64,000 bases of DNA from Psammoneis japonica. Taxonomy: Eukaryota. A program made the translations under genes and the position numbers. This document shows, piece after piece, positions 1 through 42,350 of the stretch; position 1 is the first letter of the stretch; the number at the start of each line of letters is the position of its first letter. The stretch spans positions 1 to 64,000 of the forward strand of contig QPGO01000183.1 of NCBI GenBank assembly GCA_008632985.1, in the 5' to 3' direction. The notes below the pieces were generated by a model. That model was not told the DNA's origin and made no database searches. It worked only from the letters and a program-made list of their open reading frames with translations.

Positions 1-244
1 GATCACTGTCGACGCGCAAAACTCTGTGCAGTTCTGCATGTTCCTTCACACGTGCCCACACTGTTCCGCCAAAACCGTGCAGTGTCAGTGCACGTTGGTG
101 AAGAGCCGCATGGACGCGTGATGCATGGGGAGGAGTGCAACATGCAGCTGCCAATGAGAGCCAATGTGTCACGGCGACGTGTTGCAGCCTTTAAATGTCA
201 CAAAGGGTGTGACAAAAACAACCTTTTGTCTGCATGCATGCTGC

Positions 245-2860
245 ACAATGGGCCATTGGCTCAGCTTGCCCAGCCAAACTTCAGGTCAGGACCACTTGCA
301 GGACTGTTGGAATGGTGACGGGGTAATTTGTTTGCCAAGCTTCAGGTCAAAACCACTTGCAGGACTGTCGGGATGGTGAGGGGGTGATTTGTTTGCATGT
401 CGACCTCAGGCGTGCAGCCACCGTGGGTCAACAGGCAAGATCCAAAGCTGCGCGCCCTGGAAAAAGCAACAAAAGTCAACAACGGGCCATTGGCTCAGCT
501 TGCCCAGCCAAACTTCAGGTCAAAACCACTTGCAGGACTGTTGGGAGGGTGACGGGGTGATTTGTTTGTGTGTCGACCTCAGACATGCAGCCATGGTTGG
601 TCAACAGGCCACATCTGAAGCCGCGCGCCCTGGAAAAAGCAGCAAAAGTCAACAACGGGCCATTGGCTCAGCTTGCCCAGCCAAACTTCAGGTCAAAACC
701 ACTTGCAGGACTGTTGGGAGGGTGACGGGGTGATTTGTTTGCGTGTCAACCTCAGGCAAGCAGCCATTGTGGGTCCGTGGGCAAGATCTGAAGCCGCGCA
801 CCCCAGGAAAAAGCAGCAAAAGTCAACAACGGGCCATTGGCTCAGCTTGCCCAGCCAAATTTCAGGTCAAAACCACTTGCAGGACTGTTGGGAAGGTGAG
901 GGGGTGATTTGTTTGCATGTCGACCTCAGGCGTGCAGCCGCTGTGGGTCAACAGGCCAGATCTGAAGCTGCGCGCCCAGGAAAAAGCAACAAAAGTCAAC
1001 AACGGGCCATTGGCTCAGCTTGCCCAGCCACGTTTCAGGTCAAAACCACTTGCAGGACTGTTGGGAAGGTGAGGGGGTGATTTGTTTGCATGACAACCTC
1101 AGGCATGCAGCCATTGTGGGTCAACAGGCCAGATCTGAACACGCGCACCCTGGAAAAAGCAACAAAAGTCAACAACGGGCCATTGGGTCAGCTTGCCCAG
1201 CCAAGTTTCAGGTCAAAACCACTTGCGCGACTGTTGGGAAGGTGAGGGGGTGATTTGTTTGCATGTCGACCTCAGGCATGCTGCCATTGTGGGTCAACAG
1301 GTCAGATCTGAAGCCTCGCGCCCTGGAAAAAACAACAAAAGTCAACAACGGGCCATTGGCTCAGCTGGCCCAGCCAAGTTTCAGGTCAAAACCACTTGCG
1401 GGACTGTTGGGAAGGTGAGAGAGTGATTTTCTTGCGTGCCAACCTGAGGCGTGCATCCGCCGTTGGTCAACAGGCCAGATCTGAAGCCGCGCGTCCTGGA
1501 AAAAGCAGCAAAAGTCAACAACGGGCCATTGGCTCAGCTTGCCCTGCCACATTTCAGGTCAAAACCACTTGCAGGTCTGTTGGGAGGGTGAGGGGGTGAT
1601 TTGTTTGCATGCCGACCTCAGGCAAGCAGCCATTGTGGGTCAACAGGCCACATCTGAAGCTGCGCGCCCTGAAAAAAAAACAACAAAAGTCAACAACGGG
1701 CCATTGGCTAAGCTTGCCCAGCCAAGTTTCAGGTCAAAACCACTTGCGGGACTGTTGGGAAGGTGAGAGAGTGATTTTCTTGCGTGCCAACCTGAGGCGT
1801 GCATCCGCCGTTGGTCAACAGGCCAGATCTGAAGCCGCGCACCCTGGAAAAAGCAGCAAAAGTCAACAACGGGCCATTGGCTCAGCTTGCCCTGCCACAT
1901 TTCAGGTCAAAACCACTTGCAGGTCTGTTGGGAGGGTGAGGGGGTGATTTGTTTGCATGTCGACCTCAGGCATGCAGCCACTGTGGGTCAATGGGCAAGA
2001 TCTGAAGCTGCGCACCCTGGAAAAAACAAAATCAAAAGCATGCTCAGCTGCCAGAATCAGTCAAAACCCTTGCAGACTGTTGGGAAGGTGAGGGGGTGAT
2101 TTGTTTGCATGTCGACCTCAGGCGTGCAGCCGTTGTGGGTCAACAGGCTAGATCTGAAGCTGGGCACCCTGGGAAAAGCAACAAAAGTCAACAACGGGCC
2201 ATTGGCTCAGCTTGCCCAGCCAAATTTCAGGTCAAAACCACTTGCAGGACTGTTGGGAGGGTGACGGGGTGATTTGTTTGCATGTCGACCTCAGACATGC
2301 AGCCATTGTGGTCAACAGGCCAGATCTGAAGCCGCGCGCCCTGGAAAAAGCAACAAAAGTCAACAACGGGCCATTGGCTCAGCTTGCCCAGCCAAGTTTC
2401 AGGTCAAAACCACTTGCGGGACTGTTGGGAAGGTGAGGGGGTGATTTGTTTGCATGTCGACCTCAGGCATGCAGCCATTGTGGGTCAACAGGCCACATCT
2501 GAAGCCGCGCACCCTGGAAAAAGCAACAAAAGTCAACAACGGGCCATTGGCTCAGCTTGCCCAGCCAAATTTCAGGTCAAAACCACTTGCAGGACTGTTG
2601 GGAAGGTGAGGGGGTGATTTGTTTGCATGTCGACCTCAGGCATGCAGCCATTGTGGGTCAACAGGTCAGATCTGAAGCCGTGCGCTCTGGAAAAAGCAAC
2701 AAAAGTTAACAACGGGCCATTGGCTCAGCTTGCCCAGCCAAATTTCATGTCAAAACCACTTGCAGGACTGTTGGGAAGGTGAGGGGTGATTTGTTTGCAT
2801 GTCGACCTCAGGCGTGCAGCCATTGTGGGTCAACAGGCCAGAACTGAAGCAGCGCGCCCT
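245..2860 (+). repeat. 173-bp tandem satellite array, left segment (~15 monomers)
   Basis: Monomer GGGCCATTGGCTCAGCTTGCCCAGCCAAATTTCAGGTCAAAACCACTTGCAGG...AAAAGTCAACAAC recurs; equivalent ORF starts are 173 bp apart (1020/1193). The consensus has no TA dinucleotide. Confidence 0.97.
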
Positions 2861-3291
2861 TCCCTGTGTGTGTGCTGGGCGCTGAAAAAGAAGATGTGTT
2901 GCGACTTTGTCGTTGTGAAAATTGTGAGCCAGTTTAGAGCAGAGAAAATGGGATCGTGCGAATGGGGAATCTTGCCAAATCCCCATTCGTTCGCATTTGG
3001 ATCGCATCAAATCGATCGTGCGCTCGCACTGTGGATCGTGCGAATCAAGCCATCACGCACCATGCACGAGTGATGTCATCGTGTGGAATCACGCTGCCAT
3101 TGTGGGCCAGACGACGAGCCAGTGTGCTTTGCACGGATGCTCTCTCAGCATCCTTCTGGAATTGCCCAAGACCTGGAGCCACGCCCTCCTGTGGTCGTGC
3201 TTCCCAGGTGCGTGTCAACAATGCTGCGTTGCCACGCACAAGAGGCTCATGCACGGTCTCGCCTGGTTGTCCAGCAGCGAGGCACACTGCA
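2861..3291 (-). repeat. gypsy 3' LTR
   Basis: Aligns with 7251-7686; starts TG on the minus strand right after the PPT. Its distal end appears a few bases short. Confidence 0.9.
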
Positions 3292-3299
3292 CACTCCCC

Positions 3300-4980
3300 C
3301 ATGATCAGGGCTGTCAAGTGACAGGATGTCTTGCTGGTGACAGGGTGCAATCTGCTGCAGATTGTGCACATCTGTCAGCGCTCCGTTCTGGACACGCAAC
3401 GCGCCATTGTCATGTGCACGGACAACTCTGGCGGGTCCTTCACAGCTGTCAGAACCGCATTTAGAGGATTGTTCCTGTTTGACAAGCACCAACAGCCCTG
3501 CGTCACATTGATGCTCCTTGCGTTTCTGATTTTCACGCTTGTTGTTTAAGTTGACAAGCTTCTGCTTTCTGGTTTCCATGCACTTCCACTTGGCACGATG
3601 GGCAACAGATGAAACCACATCGCGTCCGAAGACCAATTGCATGGGACTTGCATGCGTGGTCGCAGGCCCCATGCACCGCAGCTCTGGTGTCGAAGGCCAC
3701 TGCGGAGAGGATGCCACTCCATGGGTCATCTTCGTCCAGCTCCATGTCCTGCACTGAAAAGGAACGTACCATGTTACCAAGTGTCTGGTGCACACGTTCC
3801 ACTGTGGCATTCGCCTGTGGATTCCGTTCACTTGTGGGTTTCTTCAAAATCCCACAGTCATTTTTAATCATCTGGCTAAATTCTGCCATAAATTCTGTCC
3901 CACGGTCACAAACCACCTGGGTTGGCCACGGACATCTGCACAGCCACGTTTGTTCCACGACGTTTGCTGCGATGTCTGCGCGTTTCGTAGACACTTCTTC
4001 AATCTCGAACCACCCGGTTGCTGGGTCAATCATTGTGACTGCCCACAATTGCAAAGTGTCCTTTCCGCGTCTTTGAATTTTGTGTGGCCCCATCATGTCC
4101 ATGCATGGAGTCTCCCATGGAATTATCTCTGCGATCTTTTCTGGCAGCTTCCCATGATGCTGCGTTCGGCGTTTTGTCTTCTGGCATCGATCGCTCTCAA
4201 TGCACGTAGAATGCACCGTAGACCTCATGCCAGGCCAGCAGAAGTGCTGGGCAATGGACATTTCCGCACGTGTCTCACCTGGATGACACAGTGTCTCGTG
4301 GTGCCATTCAGTTGGCGGAACCTGCAATGACTGTGGTGCTGCGATTTTGTCTTTATGACAGATCAACTGTCGTGATGACCCTCCCCCACGATGTGCGCGA
4401 ATGGAGCAGTCAGACGAGTCCTTGGCTCGTGAGAGCAGGCGCTTGTCCTTTTGTTGTGCCTTTTGAATGCGCTTGAAGCTAATGGGCAGAGATGCCTCAT
4501 CTTGCGCATCTGCATTAAATGCTTCATGCAAAGGACGACTCGATGGAGTGTCTTTTGCATCCGGATTGGCCTCGGAAGGCAAGCTGGGTGCCAGCCGAAG
4601 GCAACTAAGAGCGTCAGCGACTGGGTTGTGGGTGCCCTTAACATGGCGTAATTCGGGACCGCATTCTTTGCATGTCAACCGCCAGCGCATGACGCGCTCG
4701 GTGTTGAACACTTTGCACGTAAGATTTTTATGATCAGTGTGCACAATTGTGCGATGACCAAGGAGAATCGTTCGAAATTCTTTCAACGTCTCCACAATGG
4801 CGAGCAATTCTCTCTCCGTTGTTGCACAATTTAATTGCGCACTGTTGAGCTTTCTGCTGTAAAAGGCGATGGGTTTATCATCTTGGGATGTGGCTGCTCC
4901 CAATTGACATTTAGAGGCATTGGCATGTATCTCAAAGGGTTCATTAAAATCAGGATGTGATGACAAAACATCATCCGACA
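3300..4980 (-). pseudogene. pol: gypsy pol RNase H + integrase, frameshifted near the 3' end, Tyr-depleted
   Basis: Motifs FYSRKLNSAQ..TERELLAIVETLKEFR, TDHKNL, NPVADALS, HHETLCHPG, IDPATGW, CDRGTEF, NPQANATVERVH. The C-terminal SPMQLVFGRD is in another frame. Confidence 0.92.
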
Positions 4981-4999
4981 TGGTTGGGGTTGGGGTTTG
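4981..4999 (-). repeat. 19-bp telomere-like insertion in gypsy pol
   Basis: Minus strand CAAACCCCAACCCCAACCA; removing it restores the in-frame reading ETVKRV-M-SDDVL. Confidence 0.7.
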
Positions 5000-5335
5000 T
5001 CACCCGTTTGACGGTTTCGAACGCCTCGTCTTCAACGGATGTCCACTCCCACTTGACGGTCTCACTTGCGAGTCGTGTTGGCGGAGCCAAGACTTCAGAA
5101 CGTCTAATCCACGTGTCACGGTGGCAGTTCACCATGCCAATGAATGAGCGCAGGTCGCGTTTGTTGGTTGGGGTCGCGATTCGCTTAATGGCGTCGACTT
5201 CATTGGGTGTTGGTGGCATTCCGTCTCTGTTGACCAGATGACCCAAGTGTTCTAATTGGGTTTGACAGAAATGAGATTTAGTTGCGTTAACTTTTAGTCC
5301 TGCTTTCTGGACCCTCAATGAAACTTCTTCAAGTT
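5000..5335 (-). pseudogene. pol: gypsy RT C-terminal remnant; the RT core is deleted
   Basis: KAGLKVNATKSHF..LEHLGH, LRSFIGMVN, RRSEVLAP, WEWT. Upstream it joins directly to EPHHAR, with no YxDD region present. Confidence 0.85.
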
Positions 5336-7191
5336 TGACGAGCGTGGTGTGGTTCTACACCCTCCTTGAGTTGGACATGGCAGGGTTCTCCCTTCCATTC
5401 TCCTGACATCCCATCAAATGAGGACTCATGGCGTTTCAACAGTGCCAAAAGGTCGTTTTGTTGAACTGCAGAAAGTCCCAATGCCCCTCGCGTTGTGTCC
5501 TTGAGGCAGGCCGGCGCGTGCTTGGCGTCTGAAATGCACGAAATCCGGTCGGTTTCCAAAGACAAGGCTTCTGGATCTTGAAGATAGAAGGAGGTTTCTA
5601 CCGTAGCATCTGCGTGCCTCATTGGCACTTCTCCATTGACTGATGGCCACTCCATCATCTGTTCAGAGAAGACAACATCAATGCCTTGTGTCTCCAGAAT
5701 GTCACGTCCAACAATCACATCGTGCTTGCCCAACTTTCCATTGTGCGCGTGGACGGCATGTTTAAGTTCTGCAGTTTCGGACAATTCTGGCAACCGAAAT
5801 TTAACGGTGCAGTCGTCAGACGCACTGAACGAGCCTGCTGCCGTGGTCCAGTTTGTCTCAGCCGTTGAATGGCTTCGCAGACGTATGCAGCATCGACTGT
5901 CGAGTGGAGTGCTGCTGGCGCCACTGTCCAGCAGTGCCTTGATGGTTTGAGTCTTGCCCTTGCCATGTTCAGTGTTCACAGCTGCAAACAAGATTGGAGT
6001 GAGATGAGTCTTTTTAACTCGTTTGCGGGATTGGCCCACAACACGTGTACAATGGCAATTCAGTTGTTCATTTGTGCATTCATCCAATGTGTTGAAACTG
6101 CCTGCATCGTGTCGGCAAGTGTCCGAATCTTCGGAATCACTTGGGTTGAGGTCGCGGAAGTGATTGAGCTCCTCCTCGCGTGCCTTGCGCTTTTTCTGAG
6201 CGTTGGCAAAGAACTCCTCGACCTTCGATCCGATGAGAGCATTGATGTCTTCCTCATTCCGAGGTTTTGCATTGGGCTTGCTGCCTCCGTCATTGGAATG
6301 TCCAGTCTTGACACGTTTCACGTGGTGCTTGAGCTGACGGCAATCCTCCGTATGATGTCCACAGTTAGTCCCGTGCAGCACACACGACTTCTGGGTGTTC
6401 CGTTGGGTCGTGATCAACGACTCAGGATTGTCCGTTCTATGTCCCCGCTCACGTGGAACCTTGGTGTGTTGGTCCAGGTTACCTTCGGCAAGCTCGACCT
6501 GCTCGATGCGCTTGCAGAACTGTGCAAATTCGGCGATGGCATGCGCCAACGGGTCAAAATTCTGTAGCGTCATGAACTTCTGCCATGCGTTCGGCACACC
6601 GCACTCGAACATGTCGCACAGTTCATCATTGGGTGGTGGTGCCGGTGCTTCTCCATCCTCCATCACGGGTGGAAACTGAGAGACATGGCCGTTAATTTCA
6701 ACAGCCCTCGCGACGTGGTCACGAGCAGAAACCTCTGCGGGCTTGCGCATGAAGCGCCTCAGATGACGCTTCTGCAACAGCACCGCCCCATGTGGGAAGA
6801 TACTTTCCTTTAGCTTCGCGACGCATGCTGCGTACGTAGCGTTGGTTTGAGATGCCTGCTTGTCAGCGGCATCATTGAATGACGTCAGAGCATCGCCCTG
6901 TAGCAGGTCACGCACAAGGGCAAATTTCGCTGGCCCGGTCGTCATGTTTTGTCCTTCGTGCACGCGATCCACGTTGCGCAGAAAGATTGGGAGTGTCTCG
7001 CATGTAGCCACAGAAAGGTGCGGGATGCCCATCTCGTGCATTGGACCATCCGGATCAGCAGGGTTGTTACGTAGCTTGAACGTCTGGCACTCGCCCTGCT
7101 GCAGCTCTTTCTTCTCCGGCCGTGCGAACGGAATCGGCGGCTTGATCCGCTTCTTCATGGTCGTTTTGAGATTTGTCGGTCCCACCAACAT
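5329..7191 (-). pseudogene. gag: gypsy gag + aspartic protease + start of RT
   Basis: 620-aa ORF with Zn-knuckle-like CVLHG..GHHTEDC, protease LLDSGAS and IVGRD; only 2 Tyr. Confidence 0.88.
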
Positions 7192-7250
7192 TTCGTAGTT
7201 TCGTTTCTGTAGATTTCGTCACCTCGCACAACATGCGGGAGCAACATTGC

Positions 7251-7686
7251 TGTGCCCCATGCATGCACCAGGCGCTGAAAAAAGAAGATGTGTTGCAACT
7301 TTGTCGTTGTGAAAATCACGAGCTAGTTTGGAGTGGAGAAAATGGGATCGTGCGAACAGGGAATCTTGCCAAGTCCCCATTCGTTCGCATTTGGATCGCA
7401 TCAAATCAATCGTGCGTTCGCATTGTGGATCGTGCGAAATCAAGCCATCACGCGCCATGCATGAGTGATGCCATCGTGTGGAATCACGCTGCCATTGTGG
7501 GCCAGACAACGGGCTGGTGTGCTTCACACGGGTGCTCTCTTAGCATCCTTCTGGAATTGCCTGAGACCTGGAGCCATGCCCTCCTGTGGTCGTGCTTCCC
7601 AGGCACGTGTTGACAATGCTGCGTTGCCACGCACAAGAGGCTTGTGCACGGTCTCGCCGTGTTGTCCAGCAGCGAGGCATGCTGCA
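7251..7686 (-). repeat. gypsy 5' LTR
   Basis: TG...CA termini; direct repeat of 2861-3291. Confidence 0.9.
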
Positions 7687-9877
7687 CCCTGGAGAAAGCA
7701 ACAAAAGTCAACAATGGGCCATTGGCTCAGAATGCCCAGCCAAATTTCAGGTCAAAACCACTTGCGGGGCTGCGAGGAAGGTGAGGGAGCCATTTTCTTG
7801 CATGCCAACCTGAGGCGTGCATCCGTTGTTGGTCAACAGGCCAGATCTGAAGCCGCGCGCCCTGGAAAAAGCAGCAACAGTCAACAACGGGCCATTGGCT
7901 CAGCTTGCCCAGCCAAATTTCAGGTCAAAACCACTTGCAGGACTGTTGGGAGGGTGAGGGGGTGATTTGTTTGCATGTCGACCTCAGGCATGCAGCCATT
8001 GTGGGTCAACAGGCCAGATCTGAAGCTGCGCACCCTGGAAAAAGCAACAAAAGTCAACAACGGGCCATTGGCTCAGCTTGCCCAGCCAAATTTCAGGTCA
8101 AAACCACTTGCAGGACTGTTGGGAAGGTGAGGGGGTGATTTGTTTGCATGTCGACCTCAAGCATGCAGCCATTGTGGGTCAACAGGTCAGATCTGAAGCC
8201 GCGCGCCCTGGAAAAAGCAACAAAAGTCAACAACGGGCCATTGGCTCAGCTTGCCCAGCCAAATTTCAGGTCAAAACCACTTGCAGGACTGTTGGGAAGG
8301 TGAGGGGGTGATTTGTTTGCATGTCGACCTCAGGCGTGCAGCCATTGTGGGTCAACAGGCCAGATCTGAAGCTGCGCGCCCTGGAGAAAGCAACAAAAGT
8401 CAACAATGGGCCATTGGCTCAGCATGCCCAGCCAAATTTCAGGTCAAAACCACTTGCAGGACTGTTGGGAAGGTGAGGGGGTGATTTGTTTGCATGTCGA
8501 CCTCAGCATGCAGCCATTGTGGNNNNNNNNNNNNNNNNNNNNNNNNNNNNNNNNNNNNNNNNNNNNNNNNNNNNNNNNNNNNNNNNNNNNNNNNNNNNNN
8601 NNNNNNNNNNNNNNNNNNNNNNNNNNNNNNNNNNNNNNNNNNNNNNNNNNNNNNNNNNNNNNNNNNNNNNNNNNNNNNNNNNNNNNNNNNNNNNNNNNNN
8701 NNNNNNNNNNNNNNNNNNNNNNNNNNNNNNNNNNNNNNNNNNNNNNNNNNNNNNNNNNNNNNNNNNNNNNNNNNNNNNNNNNNNNNNNNNNNNNNNNNNN
8801 NNNNNNNNNNNNNNNNNNNNNNNNNNNNNNNNNNNNNNNNNNNNNNNNNNNNNNNNNNAAAGCAACAAAAGTCAACAACGGGCCATTGGCTCAGCTTTCC
8901 AGCCAAATTTCAGCTCGAAACCACTTGCAGGACTGTTGGGAAGGTGAGGGGGTGATTTGCATGCATGTCGACCTCAGGCATGCAGCCATTGTGGGTCAAA
9001 AGGCCAGATCTGCAGCCGCGCGCCCTGGAGAAAGCAACAAAAGTAAACAACGGGCCATTGGCTCAGCTGGCCCAGCCAAACCTCATGTCAAAACCACTTG
9101 CAGGACTGCTGGGAGGGTGAGGGGGTGATTTGTTTGCATGTCGACATTCAGGCATGCAGCCGTTGTGGGTCAACAGGTCAGATCTGAAGCCACGCGCCCT
9201 GGAAAAAACAACAAAAGTCAACAACGGGCCATTGGCTCAGCTTGCCCAGCCAAATCACAGGTCAAAACCACTTGCAGGACTGTTGGGAAGGTGAGAGAGT
9301 GATTTTCTTGTGCGCCAACCTGAGGCGTGCATCTGCCATTGGTCAACAGGCCAGATCTGAAGCCGCGCACCCTGGAAAAAGCAGCAAAAGTCAACAACGG
9401 GCCATTGGCTCAGCATGCCCAGCCAAATTTCAGGTCAAAACCACTTGCAGGACTGTTGGGAAGGTGAGGGGGTGATTTGTTTGCATGTCGACCTCAAGCA
9501 TGCAGCCATTGTGGGTCAACAGGTCAGATCTGAAGCCGCGCGCTCTGGAAAAAGCAACAAAAGTTAACAACGGGCCATTGGCTCAGCTTGCCCAGCCAAA
9601 TTTCATGTCAAAACCACTCGCAGGACTGTTGGGAGGGTGAGGGGGTGATTTGTTTGCATGTCGACCTCAGGCATGCAGCCACTGGTGGTCAACAGGCAAG
9701 ATCTGAAGCCGCGCACCCTGGAAAAAGCAACAAAAGTCAACAACGGGCCATTGGCTCAGCTTGCCCAGCCAAACTTCAGGTCAAAACCACTTGTGGGACT
9801 GTTGGGAAGGTGAGGCAGTGATTTTCTTGCATGCCAACCTCAGGCACACAGCCATTGTCATGGGTCAACAGGCCACA
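7687..9877 (+). repeat. 173-bp satellite array, right segment, spanning the assembly gap
   Basis: The same monomer resumes in register after the TSD; equivalent ORF starts at 7905/8078/8251. Confidence 0.96.
8523..8858. other. assembly gap (336 N) inside the satellite
   Basis: Run of N with satellite on both sides, so the true array length is unknown. Confidence 1.
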
Positions 9878-10227: not shown

Positions 10228-10413
10228 TGAACAAATGCTGACACACTGTCATGGACACAGGCAGTGTAAGTGCTGTTGGCAATTGGTCCACTCTGTTGCT
10301 CAATTGGTGGCCCCGGTGGCACAACATCTCACAATTCTAGAACCTGTTGATGCTGTTCAACACTCTGTCTTGTCTTGCACCCAATTCTCAGCTGTCATGG
10401 CAGCATTTGTTCA
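10228..10413 (+). repeat. copia 5' LTR
   Basis: Aligns with 16109-16292. Confidence 0.92.
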
Positions 10414-10426
10414 CTTTGTCAGAGCC
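10414..10426 (+). promoter_or_regulatory. probable primer-binding site (initiator tRNA-Met type), mutated
   Basis: CTTTGTCAGAGCC directly after the 5' LTR resembles the common copia PBS TGGTATCAGAGCC, with TA->TG. Confidence 0.55.
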
Positions 10427-10879
10427 AACGCACCATGATGTTCATCGCCTGGAATGGGCATCGCGAACGGTGCGACGGCATCATTGCGATCAATCGATTT
10501 TTGCGGCAAGCGCCATGTTGGTCCCATGGTTGCTCGCGCAATCGCTGAGTCCTTTGCATGTGTCAACATTCATGGATGTGAACGACATGCTCTTGGAGAC
10601 CAGAGCTGTGATCCGTCAGACATGACGTTGGCACACGAAATGTTTGATCACGTGGATGGAACATGTTGGCTAAGACATGCAAACATTCGTGACAAAGACA
10701 ACATGATGATTTGTGCATTGAGGTCTGTCATTTGATCACACACATTTCATTGGTCAAAATGCGTTGTCAAATTGTTCAGACACTGTGCATGTGGACACAT
10801 GTCTGTTGGACATCATTGCTTGGGGGTGACACCGAAACGAGAACCACACATTTTTCTCACTTTCCTCCACTCACACAAG

Positions 10880-12340
10880 TGGATGCTCATGCGTCGAAAC
10901 GCGAACAACCATTGACACACCATGGCCACTGCTGCAGCCTTTACCGCCTGTCTTGCGCATTGTGGATGCAATGCACAGACGCGTGCCTGCACAGCCCACC
11001 AAGGCTTTGCTGTGATCGAGGACCTGGAACAGGTCCCTTTGACAGAAATTGCCGACATGACTGAGGGTGTTATGAAGAGCGTGGATGCCGCCACCAACCC
11101 CCAAGTCCACTTTCCACACCTGGCGAATCGCAAGCTCAAGGCACTGCGCGCATGGATTGACTGCCGCAGAGCTCGGAATCAAGAGCCGACCGCTGCTCTC
11201 TTCGCTGGCGACGTCATTGGAACGTGGACGGCACGTCTGACGGAACTGGAGCAATTCAAGTCCGCCGACTTGGACGACGAATCGGCTGCCAAAATGGCCG
11301 TGGAGCTCAAGAACCTGTACGACTGGCCCACCTTCCAAGAGCTGCTGGAGGCCGAGCTGCGTCACCACCACAGTGCCGTCACCGGAGTGCCCCTCATCCA
11401 CCCAATTCGGGAACATGAAGATGTCACCGCCGAGATGTTGGCTGCCACCCACACTGCCATTGACGAGGACCTTGTTGCCACTGCCCGCCTTGCAGGAGCT
11501 CAGCATGCAGGACAGGCAACGACTGCATGATCTCTTGAAGAAGCCAGTGATGGGGGGGCCCGGATGGGCTTTTGTCAAACCTTCCAATCGCAATCGCGAT
11601 GGTCGCACTGCCTTCTTCACACTTGAGAGGCAGGCAGAGGGATCGGCTGCCGCCACCACCAGGAAGAACCGTGCTTGCGCACAGATTGCTGCCGCGAAGT
11701 GCACCGGACGGGGTCGATTTACCTTTGACCAGTGCATTCAGCGTCATCAAATGGCTCACAATGACTTGTCTGAGCTGGACAAACCGGCAGCCGAGACCAA
11801 GAAGGTCTCTGACTTTCTGAAGGGTGTCTCCGACCCCAGGTTGGAAACTGGCAAGAGCACAGTGGATGGAGACCCAAGAAGCTAGCGGATTTCGAGGCAT
11901 GCCAGCAGTGTGTGAAAACTCTGGTCGAGAATGCCAAGAACCGCAACGCTGACACTCGCGGGATTGCATCCGTCCAATGCCGCAACAATCGGCGTGCCAA
12001 CCCTGGTGGGAAGCACCAACCTAAGAAGGACAAGCCCAGGATCCGGGCAGGCCATTGTCCCATTGAAGAGTGGAGTGCTCTTGACGGTCCCGAACGAGAG
12101 CAAGTCCAAAAGCTCCGCGATGCCAAGAAGGCCAAAAAAAAGTGCAAAGCTGCTGCTGCGTCCTCGGAGGCTGAGTCGGTCAATGCTGAAACTCGCGCTG
12201 TGAAGAAAGCAGCCATTGCCGAGCCCACTGCTCAACCTGCTGATGCACCAAAAGACTCCAAAGAGCCTGGTGAACCTGCCGCCAATGCAGGCACCCAGTT
12301 CGGTCGCAGTGCGCATGAGAAACCTCAGAAGGAGGACTGA
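10880..12340 (+). pseudogene. gag: copia gag, broken by frameshifts
   Basis: Consecutive ORF pieces (10922-11530, ~11520-11885, 11912-12340) with CoDi-gag-like motifs GVPLIHPIR, RDGRTAF, KKVSDFLKGVSDPRL. Confidence 0.75.
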
Positions 12341-12403
12341 ACAGTTGCGCCAGCACCAAAAGGCACAGAACCGAATGTTGCTAAACCTGCTGGCACCATT
12401 TGT

Positions 12404-15400
12404 TTGTCTGGGCGATTCTCAAAGGACACACGTGTCTCTTTGTCATCTGCTGGAAATTCAGATGACGAAGCCACCACTGATTTGGACTCGCACGCTGACA
12501 CGTGTGCTGTTGGGTCCAATTTTGTGATGTGCTCTGACATCGACAGAACTGTCGTGGTGCACCCCTGCTCCGAAGAGCATGCACCAATGGAAAACATTCC
12601 TATTTGCACGGCTGCCACCGTGTGGGTTGATCCAACTGATGGACAACCACACCTGCTGCCAGTCCACGAGGCTGTGTTTTTTGGGGACAAGATGACTGAC
12701 ACCCTCCTGTGCCCCAACCAACTGCGAGCGAATGGGCTGACCGTCCAAGACACCCCTCGCCAGTTTGATCGGACTGGCACACACTCTGTTTCTTTTCCTG
12801 ACTCGAAGATCAGGATGCCATTGCGAATGCGAGGCGTTGCTTCAGTCTTTGATTCACACAAGCCAACAAAGGAGGATCTGGAGAACCTCCCCCGGCTGGA
12901 ACTCACATCACCCCTGAGATGGGAGCCTTCTGCTGATGCCCTGGCGCAAAAGGAGGAAGCGCATGAATGTGCCAGTGTGCGCCAAGGATCAGCAAAGTCG
13001 GGCGGACGGTCGACGATGATGAATGTCGGATGGCACGCCAGAAATGGCAGAAGGCCAGACCAAGGAGATCTGCAAGGAATGCAGGATGCACCAGGAGGTG
13101 TCCACCCCACACAGCCCCTGGCAGAACCTGGCCGAGGCATCCATTCGTGAGTTGAAGAAAAGAGTCCGTGTGACTCTACGCCGGACTGGCGCTCACAGGC
13201 GACTTTGGTCCCACAGCGCCAAATGGATGTGTGACATCCGACGCATGATTGCAACTGGCACATCGGACATGGGAGGACGAGTCCCAGAAGAGGAGGTGAC
13301 AGGTTCGACACCCGACATCTCTTCCCTCTCTCTCTTTGATTGGCATCAACCTGTTTGTAGCTGCATGCCTGTGGCGGAGTTCCCACAAGAAAAGAAGTGC
13401 ATTGGCCGTTGGCTCGGAGTGGCTGACAACTGCACTGACGATGTGGCATTCATCATTTTGCCCGAATCAGGCAAACCCATCATTCGGAAGGATGTGTGGG
13501 CCATGCCGGAGGATGACCTTAAAACTCCGGCGATCCAGACGGATCTTGCATCAGTCGATCAAGCTTTGATTGAGCGGCTTGGCATCCCGGAAAAGGACAC
13601 CAGTGCTGACTTCCCTGAACTCCCTGACGACTTCATGGACGAATGGGACGATGCCATTGAACCGTGGAACCCGACGCTTCCAAACCGGAAGCTGATGAGC
13701 ACACCCCGGAAGGGCCAGATGAATGTCTCACAGCTCAAGTCATGTTGCCACGAGGAGGCGAGCTGACTCATGCTAGGGTCATTGCACGCAAGCGAGATGG
13801 CGACGGGGTTCCTGTTGGCACTAGGAACGACAACCCTGTCCTGGACTTGAGGATGTACGACGTGGAGTTCCCTGATGGATCCACTGATTCCTGCACTGCC
13901 AACGTAATTGCAGAGAACCTGTTCGCTCAGATCGACTCTGAAGGGAATGCCTGCCAGATCATGAAGGAAATGGTCGATCACCGATGTGATGCCCATGCCA
14001 CAACGGCCGATGACGGGTGCACAACGACTAAGACTGGCAGGCGTGCTCCCAGGAGGACGACTGCAGGCTGGGACCTGCAAGTCGAATGGAAGGATGGGAC
14101 TGCATCATGGGTTCCTCTCAAGGATTTGAAGGAGTCCAATCCAGTCGAGGTTGCTGAGTGCGCTGCAGCAAACAAAGCTGCCAGTGAACCAGCCTTCAAC
14201 TGGTGGGTCCGAGACGTCTTGCATCGCAGGTCAAGGATCCTGAAGAAAGTCAAGTCGCGTCACTGGAAACACACGCATGAGTTCGGAATTGAACTCCCGA
14301 AATCTGTCAAGGAAGCCATGGAGATGGACAACAGAACGGGGACCGACTTCTGGTTCAAAGCCATCGAGAAGGAAATGCGCAACGTCATGCCTGCGTTCGA
14401 ATTCCGCGATGACGACACTGTGCCGGTCGGGTGCAAACACATTGACTGTCATGTGATCTTCGACATTAAGAGCACCCTCCAACGTAAAGCGAGGTTCATG
14501 GCCAGAGGCCATCAAACCGATCCACCCAAGGAATCGACATGTTCCAGCGTGGTGTCGCGTGACAGCGTTAGGGTGGCATTCAGTGTGGCAGCCCTGAATG
14601 ACCTGGAGGTCCTGAGCGCTGACGTTCAGAATGCCTGTTTGAATGCACACACTAAGGAAAAGTGTTGCACCACTGCTGGCCTGGAATTTGGGAAGCAGAA
14701 CAAAGGAAGGCCGGTGATCATTGTCCGTGCCTTGCATGGTCTCAAGTCTTCAGGTGCAAGATTTAGGGAACACCTGGCAGCTGCTCTGCGTGACGCTGGG
14801 TTTGAGTCTTGCAAAGATGGCCCGGACATCTGGATGCAAGCTGCGGTTAAGCCGGATGGCTTCAGGCACTGGGAATGTGTGCTTGTCTGTGTGGACGACT
14901 TGTTGTGCGTCTCCCATGAACCTCAGAAGGTCATGGACCACATGAGCTCCAGGCACACGCTCAAGGACGGAAGCATCTGCGAGCCGGAAGAGTGCTTGGG
15001 CGCCCAGATTAGAAAGCACCAGCTGTCTGACTCGGATGGTGAGACACGCTGGGACATGTCCTCTGACCTTCATGTCAAAAGGGCATTAGCTGACGTTGAA
15101 TTGGAGCTTAAGAAAACTGACAGGCGTCTTCCGACGAAGGCGTCGACACCCTTGAGCTCGGGACATGGGCCTGAACTGGACGGTTCACCTGAGTTGAACG
15201 CCAAAACGGCTGACTGCTGTCAAGGCCTTGTCGGTGTGCTGCGGTGGGTGGTTGAACTGGGGCGAGTGGACATTTTTGTCACTGTCTCGCTCATGTCCTC
15301 CTGCTTGGTGGCACCACGAGTTGGACACCTGGACGAGGTGCTCCATGTCTTTGCATGCTTGAAGGCTCATTCTAAGTCTGCACCAGTGTTTGACAACACT

Positions 15401-15904
15401 GAGCCCATCTTTGACGAGAGTCGCTTCACCAAGTGTGATTGGGAAGAACATCACCCTGGCGCGGCTGAACCAATGCCGCCAAACATGCCGGAGGCACGCG
15501 GGAATGGCGTGACTGCCACTTGCTTTGTCGATGCTGATCACGCCGGATGCCGTGTGATGCGCAGGTCCCACACTGGGATCCTGATCTTCATCCAACGAGC
15601 ACCCATCTTGCATTGCTCTAAGCGGCAGAATGCTGTAGAGTCCTCCACTTTTGCGTCGGAGTTTGTGGCCATGAAGACTGCAGTGGAGCAAATTGAAGCC
15701 TTGTGTTGCAAGCTTCGGATGCTCGGAATCCCCATGGATGGGGCCACTGACGTTTTCTGTGACAATGAAGCTGTCTTCAAGAACTCAACTAAACCAGAGT
15801 CCACTTTGAAGAAGAAGCACAATGCAATTGCCTGTCACAGGACTCGTGAGGCACAAGCCGCTGGAACAGCGCGCATTGCTTGGGAAGACGGACGCACCAA
15901 CTGA
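12404..15904 (+). pseudogene. pol: copia pol (PR, partial IN, RT, RNase H), frameshifted and Tyr-depleted
   Basis: LDSHADTC (PR), PHSPWQNLAE (IN), RKARF, DVQNACL, ALHGLKSSG, CVDDLL (RT), FVDADHAG, CDNEAV, KKKHNAIACH (RNase H). Confidence 0.93.
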
Positions 15905-16108
15905 GTTGTTGCCTGGACCAAAGCTCCGGGAAATCACAAGTCACATCCTGTGGCAAGTCCCAAAAGGGGACAAACTGAACGGGTTTGCCGCGCAGGTGCG
16001 GCTTTTTCCCACCCCCAAAACACAACTGCTGCCCTGGAACAGGGCAGCATCAGGTTGCATTTGTCTGTCGATCTGACCCGAGTGGAGCTAGTGTCAGTTC
16101 GAGGGGAC

Positions 16109-16292
16109 TGAACAAATGCTGATGTGCTGTCATGGATGTAGGCAGTTTAAGTGCCAAAGGCGATTGGTCCACTGTCGCTCAATTGGTGGCCCCGGTGGCA
16201 TGACATCTCACAACTCTAGAACCTGTTGATGCTGTTCAACACTCTGTCTTGTCTCACACCCAATTCTCAGCCATCATGGTGGCATTTATTCA
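16109..16292 (+). repeat. copia 3' LTR
   Basis: Follows the PPT; ends ATTTATTCA. Confidence 0.92.
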
Positions 16293-19258: not shown

Positions 19259-19700
19259 TCCAAAGCTGGCACGCCAACTTTAGATCCAAAGTCGGCATGC
19301 CAATTTTGTGCAAAGTTGGCATGCCGACTTTTGACCCAAAGTTGGCATGCCGACTTTTGACCCAAAGTTGGCATGCCGACTTTTGACCCAAAGTTGGCAT
19401 GCCGACTTTTGACCCAAAGTTGGCATGCCGACTTTTTGCCCAAAGTTGGCATGCCAAGTTTTGACCCAAAGTCAACATGCTGAGTTTTGCTCCAAAGTTG
19501 GCATGCCAAGTTTTGACCCAAAGTTGGCATGCCGACTTTTGACCCAAAGTTGGCATGCCGACTTTTGACCCAAAGTTGGCAGGCCGACTTTTGACCCAAA
19601 GTTGGCAGGCCGACTTTTGGCCCAAACGTGGCACGCCGACTTTTGACCCAAAGTTGGCACACCAAGTTTTGTGCAAAATGCCAAGTTTTGATCCAAAGTT
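19259..19700. repeat. 26-bp palindromic minisatellite, array 1
   Basis: Unit GACCCAAAGTTGGCATGCCGACTTTT; core AAAGTYGGCATGCCRACTTT is self-complementary. Confidence 0.95.
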
Positions 19701-23947: not shown

Positions 23948-24008
23948 TGGATCGGCAACCCCTGCATGTGTGGGCACACACATGTAAAAACATTCATGTG
24001 CAACAGGT

Positions 24009-33210: not shown

Positions 33211-36200
33211 CATGCACATCCCATGCCGTGTGAACTGTGCGAGCTGTCCCACGACTTCCAAGATGCTCCACTTCACACAATTTCACACCGGTTGATGCAG
33301 AAAAAAACAGCATCAGTGAACATGCACACTGCCTGCTGCAACAAGGCCTTGTCTTCCATGTCATTGATGGACTGTGTTCATGCCACTGGGTGTGACAAGA
33401 GGATGAGGAAAAATTGTTCCTCTTGCTTCAGCAAGCTCTGGAAGAAGCAGAAGAAGCTTCATCCAGACTCTCCTTCCCAAGCCAAGCTCCTCACTTTTCT
33501 CCATCTATTTTGGCAGTCAGAGTCCAAGTGCCCATTGAAACATGACTTTCCTTTCAAGCTCTGCCTTGAAGCCTGCAAGCAAGGAGTGGTTGACTCCATT
33601 CCCTGCTCTGTCATCAGGTGTTCCCTCATTGGAAACACTGAACAGACTGTCTGCATGGACCAGCAAGGCACTTCTTCCCTGCCTTGTCTTTGCACAACTT
33701 TGTCTCTGGTCAGTTTTGTGGCAACATCAGTGAATCAGATGCTCTGGACAGCTTCTCTCTTGGATCTGAAGATTTGGCCTGCCTTGAAGATCTCTTCCTC
33801 ACTGGCCTCAGCATTGGGCTTTCTCCAGAACAAGCTGCCTCCATTCCCACAGCTGAGCTTGGACAAACATTCCTCAATCACTTCCACCACTTCAGACTTT
33901 TCATTTGCCCAGATGATGCAACAGTCAAGACACTCAATCAAGAGCACCATGAAGGTCTGGTTCTTTGCTGTCTAGCCATGCAAATGTTTGGAAACACCAG
34001 CCAGCTCCAGCTTGCAAACACTCTGCCCTTGGAACCAACAATGACACTTCAGTTGTTTCAGAATTGTCAGCTCCTTTTTGAGCTCCTTTCTTGCTCTCTG
34101 CAACCTCCATTTGGATCTTTCACATTGCACTTAATTTCTGCAGTTCATTTCTCTGTTTTTTCTTCTACAAAATCAGCCAAATTAATTTGCACTTCACCCC
34201 CTTTTCCCACTTCCCTTTTCCCACTCCCTTCTTGGCTTTGCTTTCCCTTCAGCCTTTGCTTTTGCCCTTTGCCCACTGCCAATTGCCTGAACCCCAACTC
34301 CAGAAGTGCTCGAAGTGGCTGCTTGAATGAGCACTGTTGAAGCGCAGTGGAGACGGCACAAGTGAGAGCTCCACAAAGAGCACAATGTCCTCACAAACCC
34401 TGTGACCCCAACCCCAGCGGCCCAACCCTGACCCCAAGTGCCATGAAGGTCTGGTTCTTTGCCGTCCAGCCATGCAAATGTTTGGAAACACCGACCAGCT
34501 CTAGCTTGCAAACACTGTCCTTGGAACCAACGATGACACTTCAGTTGTCTCAGAATTGTCAGCTCCTTTTTGAGCTCCTTCCTTGCTCTCTGCAGCCTCC
34601 ATTTGAATCTTTCACATTGCACTTCTTTTCTTTAGCTCATTTCTCTGTTTTTTCTTCTACAAAATCAGCTGAGTTGATTTGCGTTTCACCCCCTTTTCCC
34701 ACTTCCCTTTTCCCACTCCCTTCTTGGCTTCACTTTCCCTTTAGCCTTTGTTTTTGCCCTTTGCCCACTGCCAATTGCCCAAACCCTGACCCCTTGTCAG
34801 TGTTGCAAAACATTCGATTTTGGACAAATCTGTGCTTTTGGTGGTGAAATTTTGTTCGCAAGTGAGAGACCGAGCAAAATTTGAGCAGTTGTTCATTTTG
34901 TGCATGATTTGGGTCACGTGCAGCTGGAACATGTCCCTTGGCCATTTTCCACCTTTTGTGATTTCATGCACTCAGCCGCCATTTTGCACCCTCAGACATT
35001 TTGTGCTTTCTGAATGATTTTGTGCCTCTGGTCATTTTGTGCCCATGTTGCACCCTCAGCCATTTTGCACCCTTTGTCACAAGCAGACGTGTTCCAGCTG
35101 CATGTGGGACCTTGCGCTGCTGGGCTGTGGCGCAATCATCCAAAGTTGGCATGCCAAGTTTTGTGCAAAGTTGGCATGCCAAGTTTTGACCCAAAGTCGG
35201 CATGCCGAGTTTTGCTCCAAAGTTGGCATGCCGACTTTTGACCCAAAGTTGGCATGCCGACTTTTGATCCAAAGTTGGCATGCGGACTTTTGGCCCAAAG
35301 TTGGCATGCCGACTTTTGACCCAAAGTTGGCATGCCGACTTTTGATCCAAAGTTGGCACGCCAACTTTTGACCCAAAGTTGGCATGCCAAGTTTTGTGCA
35401 AAGTTGGCATGCCAAGTTTTGATCCAAAGTTTGCACACCACATCAGATGCATTCCAGATGTGGGTGGGAATTCTTGCATGATCGCCAACAGAAAATCAGG
35501 CAATTTTGCAAATGCACAAACTCGCCCATGATTGAAGCACATCATTTTTTGCTTGGCCAGCTGCACTCTTCAGACATTGAAGAATGTGGCTGGCACATTG
35601 TTGTTTCTCTGAATTTCTTGCATGAAACATCTGGGGCTTTGCAAAACAGCGAGTTTGGACATTTTTTTTAAATGTCACTCACAGAAAGGCACGTGCAAAA
35701 CATGCGACGGATTACAAAAGTCATTTGTGTCACATGTCAGTGCTGCGAGCTCCCACCTGGGGCTGGAACGCGTCATCATGAAGCAGATTCCATCTTCCCA
35801 CCATTTTTTCAGTTGATCCACTCAACATGACCCAGCAAGATGAGCATCCAAAGACCAAAGACACCCCAAAAACAAAACATCAAGAAAGCAAAGAATGGTT
35901 GCCAGCAGTGCTCTGCACTTCTGGGTGTTCTGCGTTTGTGCTTGCAGATGTGTTCCAGCTCCAGGTGGGACCTCGCACTGCCGAACTGTGACATCGACAG
36001 TTTTTTGGATCACACCGCATGTCGTGCACACAGAAAGGTGCGCGGCTTTTGTGAAATTTTGCATCATTTTGTGGCACACTTGTTGAGCAATCCGTCCAAC
36101 AACTTTTGACATTTTTTCTTCTACGCCATTCACAAATGTCTTGAGAATGGCACAGGGCAGGTGCATTTGCAAAAATGTCAAGTGGCAATGGCCACAATTG

Positions 36201-36628: not shown

Positions 36629-36629
36629 C

Positions 36630-39600: not shown

Positions 39601-42350
39601 ATTTGCAGCAGGGCAAACGTGCACAATGGACATCATGATTCAGCTGCACTTGCCAATTTTTAAAATCACAAATGATGTCATGCTGAAAAAGCACACAAAC
39701 TCCACAACACACCACCAAAAAATGAGCTTGCATCCAACTGAAAATGTGCCGTGTGCCAATGCAATGGCACAAATGAACAGTGTCAACAATGAATTTCAGC
39801 TTGATTTGTCTTTGGGTTTGGATGTGTGTGTCAGCACACCTCTTGTTGGTTGCATCTTGTCTGCCTTGCTTGTGCACTTGCTTCTTGTTTCTGTGTCCTC
39901 TGTCTTGTGTTTCAAGCCTCAAAAAGAGCTCCTTGCATCTGTTCCAATGTGGAGTTGCTGACATCAAAGACAACAGCAACCACAATCCAGCACCAAACAT
40001 GAGCAGCGCTGATCTGCCCATGGGCTTAAAGCAAGTTGACACACATTGCACTGCAGCCAGCATCAAGAGTTGGCAGCCTGAGTGAGCTCTTGGGATGCGC
40101 GCTGCTCACAAGTTTGTTTCCTTGCCATTGTCTGTTGTCTCTCATCCAATTTTTACATCCATGTGATGCAGTTCTGTGAGAAGTTGCCCCCATTCTCAAG
40201 CACTGGTTGGCCAATCATGCTGTTTGACAAATGGCAAGCAGCCAACCCAAGAAGGCAATTGATGCTGTCTCTTGGATGCTGCTTGTTGCGCCAGTGCTCT
40301 GAGGTCACACCTTCTTGCTGGGCTTGATTTGAGTCCAAATTGGTGGCAGTTGCCAAACATTGAGCTGCCCCAGTTCTTGAGGAATGTGACAATCAGCATG
40401 AGATCACCATGGTCAGTGCTGATTTTGCAGAGTGCGCTCCTCTCTTAAAAGAAAGCTCTGTCAATCAAGGCTCTGCCCTGTCCTGCAAAAAACAAGTGCA
40501 CCTTGGCCTGTTGGGGTGCCTTTGATGGATTTGTTGCAAATGCTTTTTTGCCAGGTGATTTGTGCAACACTGGCAAGTTCTCTTGGCACTTGTTGGCGTG
40601 GCTTGCATTGCCACTGTTCTTGTCTTCCAGATTCTGTCATGTCAGCCTTTGTGGATTGCTTGCAAGTGAGCGGGGTCATGTTCATCACACACACACACAC
40701 CCTTGGCACTGGTTTTCTTTTAAAGTCACATGCAGGGAATGCCAGTGCTGTTCCGCGTCTCTCGCTCACAAGGAGCAAGTTGAAGAAACTTGAAAGCAGC
40801 CAATCTTTGGACTTTGCTCAGTGGACAGAGAACTGCTGGATGACAATGAAAGGACATTGGTGGTGGACACCCATTTTGCATGCCAGCGCAACATGCATTT
40901 TGGCTGGACTCCATTCATGAAACATTTGTTTGCTGGATCTGGCACCCTTGATGTGAGATGGCTCCCATGCTTCTCACATTTTAGAAAGAAGTTTTGGCCA
41001 CAACGGATGCTCTGACAGCTCAACTGGATTTCTTGCTTTTTGGAAGAGAGTCAATGGAATCAAAAGAGCAGCAGTCAGAGCACCTGCTGCATTCTCTGTT
41101 GTTGGAACAAAACCAAGAGGAATCTGAGCTTGAGCCCAACAACTTGACAAATGCATTTTCAGGATGATTTGCTGTCAACAGCGTGTTTGATGGACTCTCT
41201 TGTGGTCGCAGGTGCTTTCATCATGGCTGTCTTTCCAGCACTTGTCCTCTCCTTCACTTGTGTTGACAACATCAAGATTGCAGGCAGATGTGAATGAACA
41301 CCACCTGCCCATCATTGCTGAGTGCCCCCAAGTCCCATCTGCTGACCACCGTGGAAGCTCAGCAAAACCAAGGCATCCACATTGACCACACATGTGGAGA
41401 ACCATGTTGTCAATGCCAGTTGTTTCTGTTGTGATCAGAGCAGCAGTTTTGAGACATTCAAGTGCTCAGCGCAACACAAAGCCCCGTGAACTGTGGAAAT
41501 TTGTTGAGCAGGGGGGTCTTTTGCCCCACAGTTTGGGCAGAGAGATGTTTTTGTCATTCTGCGGGCATGAACCAAGGCAGCTGTGCCTGAGAAGGGGGTG
41601 CCGTGTTGTTGAGCCCACCTTTTGCACCGCTTTGCAGGGTCTCACACCCTTTCTCACCTTGAGCGTCGCTCTTTTCTTTTTTAGTTTGGCATCTCTTGTT
41701 CAACTTCTTTCAGACTTTGATGGATGTCAAAGTCACTGACCACTCACCCCCTGTCCTGCAGGAAGGCATGCCTGTTGCAGCCTTGTCAACAGAGTCATGG
41801 CTCCAGTGCTTGCCTCCATTCTGTGTCTTGCGCAGTGCAAACTTTGGCAATTTCCAGGGTTTCTTCCAGGGCTGGCCAAAAATGAAATGCTGTGGCAAAG
41901 GTCGCAGATTGACCCTGCATTTGTTGTTGAGGGGCACTCTTCCTCCAACTGAGAAAAATTCAACACACCAAATGCCCCTGCTGCTGCTGTTCATTGGCTT
42001 GCATTTGCACACTCATTTTCATCAACACAGCCCAGCAATTCTCGGTCTTGGCACAACCTCAATGCGTTCCTCTGATTGTTGGGTAAAAATTTAACACATC
42101 CAATGCATCCAATGCTTTTGCTGCAACTGCTCTCATTGGTTGATGTTTGCACATTCATTTTCTGCAGTTGTGCCCAGAAGCCTCAATCTCTGTGCAGCAA
42201 TTCTCAACCTCTGCCCGCCAGCATCAACACATTCCTCCAATTGTTGGGCAAAAATTCAGCACATTCCCCCCAATGAAAATGTTCTTATGCATCATGTTAA
42301 TGCAGTTAGACAACAAGCACAGTGCTTGACAAGACTGCCCTGTTGAGTCT
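36630..42350. other. highly decayed TA- and CG-poor DNA, probably old repeat or pseudogene relic
   Basis: Very few TA and few CG dinucleotides, TG/CA-rich; no domain recognisable by eye. Confidence 0.6.

Follow-up and report, generated by a model that had tools for sequence, protein, structure and literature searches.

We analysed a stretch of 64,000 nucleotides from Psammoneis japonica (GenBank assembly GCA_008632985.1, contig QPGO01000183.1, positions 1 to 64,000 of the forward strand), hereafter called the window, in which the dinucleotide TpA (TA) is nearly erased from transposons, satellite DNA and other non-genic DNA and is retained in the adjacent genes. Dinucleotide counts were compared with the expectation from base composition (observed/expected, o/e) in bins of 2 kb and 500 bp, and the window proved to consist of two sharply separated composition states. 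At positions 1-42350, 206 TAs were counted whereas 2662 were expected (o/e 0.077), and the TA-poor state reaches past this part into two islands at about 49800-53900 and 58300-62000. The TA o/e is 0.02-0.25 in the repeats versus 0.56-0.67 in the genes, a localized loss that spares neighbouring genes, and at each border the switch from normal TA to TA-free sequence takes only 100-400 bp. TG and CA are abundant in the TA-poor parts (o/e 1.35-2.2), as an initial annotation of this DNA had noted for the satellite, the gypsy and copia elements and the duplicated block. AA and TT are at or above expectation in these parts, mostly at an o/e of 1.1-1.6 per 2-kb bin (range 0.98-1.79); because they are not lowered, A as such is not targeted, and the proposal that the target is TA rather than A in general was borne out. 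The CpG o/e is also down in the TA-poor blocks (0.1-0.9). CpG decay is a second process that runs alongside and cannot account for the TA loss.

The left end of the window carries an array of a 173-bp satellite (CpG o/e 0.37-0.44) in two parts, at 334-2860 (3 TAs, o/e 0.023) and 7691-9875 (TA o/e 0.02), the latter containing a run of 336 N at 8523-8858, which is either a gap in the assembly or withheld sequence. The consensus monomer lacks TA entirely and almost no TG/CA polymorphism is seen among 22 monomers, which means that conversion preceded amplification or that homogenization has come since. Inserted in the satellite, on the minus strand, is a Ty3/gypsy element with one long terminal repeat (LTR) at 2861-3295 (TA o/e 0.045), an interior at 3296-7254 between the two LTRs, and a second LTR at 7255-7690 that differs from the first chiefly by exchanges between TG and CA. 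The TA o/e is 0.05-0.09 in the LTRs and 0.25 in the interior, which thus retains more TA, and the CpG o/e is 0.83-0.88 and 0.88, respectively. Two open reading frames (ORFs) were found in the interior, one for gag/protease (5329-7218) and the other for RNase H-integrase (3533-4999). No reverse transcriptase (RT) domain was detected in 3296-7254, and the element looks internally deleted, as only about 330 bp lie between its two ORFs.

A Ty1/copia element on the plus strand follows, with its 5' LTR at 10228-10413, its interior at 10414-16108 and its 3' LTR at 16109-16292. The interior (5695 bp; TA o/e 0.107, CpG o/e 0.71) contains exactly 31 TAs, the number that the initial annotation had given as approximate. 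Its pol ORF (13661-15904, 747 amino acids (aa)) is still open, and the YVDD motif now reads CVDD. The next 26 kb or so (16293-42200; TA o/e 0.055, CpG o/e 0.41) are a block of nested and duplicated repeats. In this block, a 26-bp tandem repeat that has an internal palindrome forms three arrays (19260-19659, 25937-26439 and 35138-35435), which sit within a larger duplicated unit. Inside this TA-free block lies a truncated pseudogene resembling class-III aminotransferases (17911-18780, plus strand), which shows 53% identity to its best relative and spans the N-terminal approximately 285 of approximately 470 aa. Its Tyr content is 0.3%, compared with 1.1-3.5% in its 12 best relatives, and a PDB sequence search with it returned weak matches only (E ≥ 0.2). 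The pseudogene may be a captured gene fragment or a dead paralogue.

The two TA-free islands lie among the genes. The first (49800-53900) contains 7 TAs (o/e 0.027; CpG o/e 0.23), and when transposable element (TE) termini were looked for in it, none was recognized. The second (58300-62000; TA o/e 0.073, CpG o/e 0.45) is high-copy by contig depth.

Three gene blocks, 42501-49700, 54001-58000 and 62101-64000, served as controls, with TA o/e values of 0.56, 0.58 and 0.67 and a CpG o/e of about 1.0 (1.03 in the first). The first block holds a fragment of an Aa_trans gene and an uninterrupted ORF of 1469 aa on the minus strand (44544-48953) that has normal TA and no Pfam match; within this ORF, an internal repeat of about 830 bp occurs at 45288-46116 and 46284-47097 (63% identity). 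The second block contains a gene for an LCIB/LCIC-type carbonic anhydrase (54273-55478, plus strand) and a fragment of an aldehyde dehydrogenase gene (57327-58001, minus strand). The best named matches of the carbonic anhydrase come from diatoms (Odontella, a metagenome-assembled genome of Bacillariaceae, Amphora, Chaetoceros and Thalassiosira), with a maximum identity of 79% over 71% of the query and 77% for the top-scoring match. Tyr makes up 2.1-2.2% of the two long gene ORFs, and together with the TA values this confirms the earlier statement that the adjacent genes use TA and Tyr normally. Adjoining the aldehyde dehydrogenase fragment is an inverted duplicate of about 200 bp with 81% identity (57179-57385 and 63196-63398); its TA is normal, which shows that duplicates escape conversion when they are short, diverged and located in genic DNA. 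Contigs of a second sequencing run (X2), which is not on record as RNA, were placed on parts of genes, and most of the 49.8-53.9 kb island has no such contig; one contig runs over 43357-43854 and 43946-44459 and lacks the 91 bases in between, as would be expected of a spliced Aa_trans-like transcript. These contigs were not used as evidence either way.

Direction and timing of the TA conversion

To read the direction of change, we aligned the copia element by codons with 27 intact metagenomic relatives, 10 of 37 candidates having been dropped because of stops or ambiguous translation, and took a dinucleotide position as conserved when it was present in at least 60% of the 27. TA was kept at only 1 of 26 conserved TA positions, the others being now TG (15), CA (8) or TT (2), so that 23 of the 25 changes are transitions to TG or CA. 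The 15 other dinucleotides were retained at 52-100%, and their losses mostly neighbour a converted TA. This is the polarized spectrum that had been set beforehand as a check on the claim, and it agrees with it. At the protein level, the copia pol ORF was compared with its 120 best relatives and aligned with the 60 best. It contains 0.13% Tyr, 4.0% Cys and 4.15% His, compared with medians of 3.96% (range 3.1-5.4%), 1.35% and 2.39%, respectively, in the 120 relatives. The ORF is identical to its relatives at 383 of 456 conserved columns (382 of 432 outside the conserved Tyr columns), and the 24 conserved Tyr columns hold one Y, 14 C (TGY codons), 7 H (CAY codons) and 2 F. Likewise, none of the six conserved Tyr columns of the gypsy RNase H-integrase ORF has kept Tyr, two having C and four H, and the three such columns of the aminotransferase-like pseudogene have H, H and C. 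Since the intact relatives carry TA or Tyr at the altered positions, TA was at a normal level in the ancestor and the change went from TA to TG or CA.

The family members are not themselves TA-free. All 80 metagenomic copia relatives have a TA o/e of 0.49-1.03, and a gypsy relative (L081) has a TA o/e of 0.73 and 16 Tyr in 438 aa. Selection and an inherently TA-poor transposon family were ruled out as explanations, as every one of the 80 DNA relatives and the 120 protein relatives is normal. Both strands are struck, as seen from the TG:CA ratio of 15:8 in copia, the ratio of Tyr to Cys and Tyr to His changes of 2:4 in gypsy, and LTR copies that have changed in opposite ways at the same site. 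As to an asymmetry between transcription strands, the sense-strand ratios of 15:8 and 2:4 run opposite ways, and the intact copia relatives already have more TG than CA.

When an element integrates, its two LTRs have the same sequence. We define a swap as a dinucleotide that is TG in one copy and CA in the other. Across 418 aligned bases, 39-40 positions distinguish the two gypsy LTRs; 20 of these positions make up 10 swaps, and at three further sites TA stands opposite TG or CA. In the copia LTR pair, 8 swaps account for 16 of 24 differing positions. Random transitions would give a mean of 0.5 swaps for gypsy and 0.41 for copia, with maxima of 5 and 4 in 5000 simulations. CpG decay was ruled out as the source of the swaps: the gypsy LTRs retain 27-29 CpGs each and show only 7 single CpG changes, from which the double hits required are expected at far below one. 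The LTR swaps therefore show that conversion struck chromosomal DNA once the elements had integrated, that each copy was converted independently and that either strand could be struck. In the other repeat pairs taken together, no double transition comes near TG/CA swaps in number, and these swaps also lead in most of the single pairs. The initial annotation had proposed an A-to-G change at TpA on both strands at the DNA level, and the polarized relatives and the LTR pairs both support it.

The gypsy LTRs also give a measure of speed. About 23 ancestral TA sites were inferred in them, and 3 of approximately 46 site-copies survive (about 94% lost), compared with a change per copy that we roughly estimate at 1.6% at other sites and 10% at CpG. 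Very roughly, and from these LTRs, TA loss is about 100 times as fast as background change and about 20 times as fast as CpG decay; near saturation is reached long before ordinary divergence or CpG decay. TE ages calculated from LTR divergence are inflated in such DNA, about half of the LTR differences here being derived from TA.

Sequence context, copy number and the same footprint elsewhere

Conversion proceeds site by site. Of 102 pairs of neighbouring swaps, 44 have the same orientation (by distance: up to 6 bp, 8 of 12; 7-20 bp, 16 of 38; 21-60 bp, 11 of 28; above 60 bp, 9 of 24), and no strand-coordinated clusters were found among these 102 pairs. Each event is independent and does not belong to a processive run along one strand. 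The TAs that survive, 227 in number, depart strongly from a random sample. With gene DNA as the reference, survival is about 48% for TTAA, 32% for TTAG/CTAA, 24% for CTAG, 4.5% for GTAC and 1% for ATAC/GTAT, and 0% for ATAT. An additive model in which the rate at which the A of each strand is struck depends on nothing but the base at -2, two positions to its 5' side, fits these data with doses of 2.6-2.8 for A, 1.55-1.6 for G, 0.7 for C and 0.4-0.5 for T. The chi-square is 2.2 with gene DNA as the baseline and 5.4 with the 80 copia relatives as the baseline (6 degrees of freedom each), compared with about 285 (9 degrees of freedom) for uniform survival. The ranking is broadly alike in the gypsy interior, the copia interior, the 16-42 kb block and the islands. 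At position -2, the surviving TAs thus point to an order of preference of A > G > C > T.

In coding sequence, the conversion removes TAG, turns TAA into TGA and replaces Tyr with Cys or His, and it creates no new stops. For this reason many long ORFs remain in dead DNA, and copia pol is open despite 21 changes of Tyr to Cys or His. The elements are inactivated by missense changes while their ORFs remain open, and dead elements that keep long ORFs get predicted as proteins.

The initial annotation had called the process repeat-restricted, which is more than the data support. The multi-copy elements are all converted and the short duplicates of 63-81% identity in the gene blocks are not, and an island at single-copy depth is converted as well. 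Logan contigs of one sequencing run (X1) cover 49586-52595, 52568-53523 and 53534-56840 with 2, 2 and 1 letters differing from the window, at depths of 59-65, and the depth over the 49.8-53.9 kb island is about 64, compared with 59 on the flanking genes, that is, single-copy depth. Because of this island, "silenced, non-genic DNA" is a safer description of the target than repeat-restricted. As the contigs of run X1 reproduce the TA-free island, the island is not an assembly artefact. Among the few differences between the window and single-copy contigs of this run (8 are listed), 3 are TA/TG or TA/CA and 3 are CpG/TG or CpG/CA, numbers so small that they give no more than a hint. The TA differences lie at 42397, 50151 and 55965, and at 50151 the sole TA left in that part of the island is CA in the contig. 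These TA differences could be allelic variants produced by the same process.

Judged from protein sequences, the same hypermutation footprint is present elsewhere in public data, where it is annotated as protein. Among the best 150 relatives of the gypsy element in a library of 1.84 billion proteins, five are free of Tyr (P0280, P0284, P0325, P0357 and P0362) and contain 3-5% Cys and 4-5% His, and two more (P0273 and P0384) contain 1.3% Tyr. We used as the reference six Tyr columns that are conserved in 63 normal gypsy relatives. The five Tyr-free proteins have only C or H at the columns that could be aligned (6 of 6 in P0280 and 4 of 4 in P0284), and P0273 and P0384 have one S each besides. 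These seven proteins are 31-61% identical to the gypsy element of the window and at most 53% identical to each other, and they thus represent several separate lineages. A metagenome scan with P0280 found no relative, and scans of viral contigs with P0280 and P0284 found no locus.

Proposed process and alternative explanations

We consider it highly probable that a process converting TpA to TpG or CpA acts on chromosomal DNA after integration and is of the same kind as the TpA-specific hypermutation of integrated viral DNA in the rhizarian Bigelowiella natans (Mettrop et al., bioRxiv 10.64898/2026.01.13.699255). With this 2026 preprint, the remark in the initial annotation that the process was undescribed no longer holds. 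The process would be a nuclear one at the DNA level, turning 5'-TpA-3' into TpG or CpA by an A:T to G:C change at the A of either strand. Its targets would be transposons, satellite DNA, a dead gene copy and other CpG-depleted non-genic DNA, with adjacent genes spared. The most likely chemistry would be conversion of adenine to hypoxanthine by deamination, through a polynucleotide adenosine deaminase that is TadA/ADAT2-like or of another type and may be recruited to silenced chromatin, and the process may work as a genome defence. We propose the deaminase chemistry, taken alone, only tentatively, at somewhat less than an even chance.

Several observations weigh against this interpretation. It is drawn from one assembly and one sample, in which no de novo mutation was observed, and run X1 is probably the source sample of the assembly, with its library type unrecorded, so that it gives no independent support. 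In-situ TG/CA polymorphism is absent from the satellite, whose consensus is already TA-free, and only the end state is visible there. None of the 80 metagenomic DNA relatives and none of the 120 protein relatives of the copia element carries the signature, and the process is therefore not general among the hosts of this TE family. The -2 preference is derived from surviving TAs, some of which were possibly regenerated by other mutations. Finally, the footprint reads the same whether the A or the T paired with it is attacked.

This last point leads to the strongest of the alternatives, which we regard as unlikely: the T of TpA may be modified or oxidized to 5-hydroxymethyluracil or 5-formyluracil by a TET/JBP-type dioxygenase and then be converted to C, the modified T mispairing with G or being aberrantly repaired, so that the other strand reads A to G. 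TpA is palindromic, TA to CA and TA to TG are mirror images of each other, and the attacked base is consequently not assignable. Furthermore, 5-formyluracil mispairs with G, 5-hydroxymethyluracil in dinoflagellates is enriched at TpA, and aberrant glycosylase repair reportedly gives T-to-C changes in another context. However, we know of no such T modification in diatoms, and nothing in the window bears on one. The sole published treatment of the signature, in the excerpted text of the B. natans preprint, favours adenine deamination, also without proof.

Another explanation dispenses with a dedicated mutator. Symmetric N6-methylation of A at TpA would mark silenced DNA, and N6-methyladenine (6mA) would slowly decay to G through deamination or mispairing, as an adenine counterpart of the decay of methylated CpG. 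A palindromic target is what maintenance methylation needs, the changes occur independently, site by site and on both strands, and TA and CpG losses occur in the same blocks. The tempo does not fit, because about 94% of the TA sites but only about 10% of the CpG sites were lost in the gypsy LTRs. To our knowledge, eukaryotic 6mA methylases target ApT and not TpA, and we know of no evidence that 6mA is strongly mutagenic. In addition, the excerpted preprint text describes the B. natans process as on in only some lines, which suggests regulated activity. We judge decay of 6mA to be improbable.

The initial annotation had also named error-prone repair as a candidate. On that account, DNA polymerase eta (Pol eta) would misincorporate opposite T at TpA during WA-type error-prone repair or translesion synthesis in heterochromatin, and Pol eta does give A-to-G changes at WA motifs. 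Yet AA is not depleted in the TA-free 2-kb bins (o/e mostly 1.1-1.6), the changes at conserved TA are almost only transitions (23 of 25 to TG or CA), and near-complete saturation would be hard to reach through occasional repair patches. This candidate was dropped as very unlikely.

Editing of retroelement transcripts by an ADAR-like or ADAT enzyme, fixed by reverse transcription and re-integration, has in its favour that retroelements do pass through RNA and that ADARs favour a U 5' to the A that they edit (cited in the preprint text on B. natans), but it is highly improbable given the 10 and 8 swaps between LTRs that were identical at integration, the action on both strands (15 TG to 8 CA), the absence of same-strand runs, and the TA-free state of satellite DNA and of a gene-derived pseudogene. 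An artefact, either a systematic base-calling or polishing error at modified heterochromatin bases or an altered reference, might be suspected from the probable origin of the only run that contains the sequence in the source sample, of unrecorded library type, but we give it hardly any weight, because the contigs of this run reproduce the TA-free island at single-copy depth with 2 and 2 differing letters, the outcome is TG or CA site by site and differs between paralogous copies, long ORFs show coherent Tyr to Cys or His replacement, and unrelated Tyr-free gypsy proteins occur in public data.

If conversion of TpA in chromosomal DNA is the correct reading, a wider possibility arises, which we hold to be doubtful at present: stramenopiles and rhizarians might share an ancient chromatin-directed pathway of DNA-adenine editing, or of TpA modification, with an RTA-type motif. 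Such a pathway would clear transposons, satellites, viruses that have integrated and dead copies of genes of their TpA, it would be a second eukaryotic system resembling repeat-induced point mutation (RIP) with the opposite chemical direction, and it would have left a widespread fingerprint in public databases, namely open "pol" ORFs free of Tyr. The results constrain the candidate enzyme by a -2 preference of A > G > C > T, action after integration, the lack of strand runs and a rate far above that of CpG decay. They also point to organisms in which to search for it, of interest for genome defence, heterochromatin biology and possibly a natural DNA adenine editor.

Comparison with known systems

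Deamination of 5-methylcytosine (5mC) at CpG resembles the conversion described here in its palindromic dinucleotide target, its TpG and CpA products and its site-by-site action. However, it cannot remove TpA, and about 90% of the CpGs in the gypsy LTRs survive despite the near-complete loss of TA. In excerpts of PMC9998398, diatoms are reported to methylate transposons at CpG, which fits the CpG loss in the same blocks.

APOBEC3, AID and ADAR likewise deaminate nucleic acids in the host at short motifs and act against selfish elements. APOBEC3 and AID act on cytosine and ADAR acts on RNA, before or during integration and in same-strand clusters, whereas the changes in the window arose after integration, on both strands and unclustered. 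In the tRNA deaminases TadA and ADAT2-ADAT3, the natural substrate A34 follows U33, a U-A context that corresponds to TpA, and the B. natans preprint cites reports of DNA editing by ADAT2; we know of no purine preference at -2 as a feature of the tRNA loop. No TadA/ADAT2-ADAT3 gene lies in the window, and a search for such genes in the rest of the genome was not made.

Fungal RIP is alike in being a DNA-level transition hypermutation with a dinucleotide context that acts on repeats and transposons, independently in each copy, spares neighbouring genes and co-occurs with cytosine methylation. RIP changes C to T mostly at CpA, creates TpA and stop codons and lowers the GC content, whereas the A-to-G change seen here destroys TpA, removes TAG, turns TAA into TGA, produces no new stops and raises the GC content. 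RIP itself was ruled out by this opposite direction, the destruction of TpA and the persistence of long ORFs. We found no report of TpA loss or of a RIP-like process in diatoms in a search that lay outside subscription journals, and excerpts of two papers on diatom TEs (PMC2806351 and 10.1101/2025.10.24.684338) contained no mention of either.

The closest system is that of B. natans, as described in excerpts of the preprint by Mettrop et al. (10.64898/2026.01.13.699255). There, integrated DNA of nucleocytoplasmic large DNA viruses (NCLDV) and virophages undergoes TpA-specific hypermutation. In mutation-accumulation lines, two viral regions mutated about 1000-fold faster than the remaining genome, and 210 of 211 and 20 of 20 mutations were A to G or T to C, all at TpA. 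Clusters poor in TpA and rich in TpG and CpA were enriched in RT and DDE domains, and an ADAT2 homologue was proposed, without a test, as the candidate enzyme. As far as these excerpts go, the two cases agree in the restriction to A-to-G and T-to-C changes and to TpA, in the action on both strands, in the targeting of foreign or repeat DNA beside normal genes, and in a long-term signature of low TpA with high TpG and CpA that includes RT- and DDE-bearing sequences.

The two cases also differ. The host here belongs to another supergroup branch, as it is a stramenopile, most likely a diatom to judge by its protein matches, and not a rhizarian, and the converted sequences are LTR retrotransposons, a satellite and a pseudogene, with no viral insert seen in the window. 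The excerpts of the main preprint text, supplements apart, contain no mention of diatoms, of an extended motif or of LTR evidence, whereas the window provides a -2 preference and LTR pairs that place the change after integration. Mutation rates were measured directly in B. natans, and the evidence here is a footprint in one assembly. That footprint is nearly total, with a TA o/e of 0.02-0.25 compared with a Rho of 0.45 that the excerpts give for the B. natans NCLDV region. A natural process that changes A:T to G:C at a set motif in the double-stranded DNA of the nucleus, and only in selfish or silenced sequence, has only just been reported, in one alga. That a second lineage, which is distant and ecologically dominant, carries a far fuller footprint suggests that the process is no curiosity of a single species.

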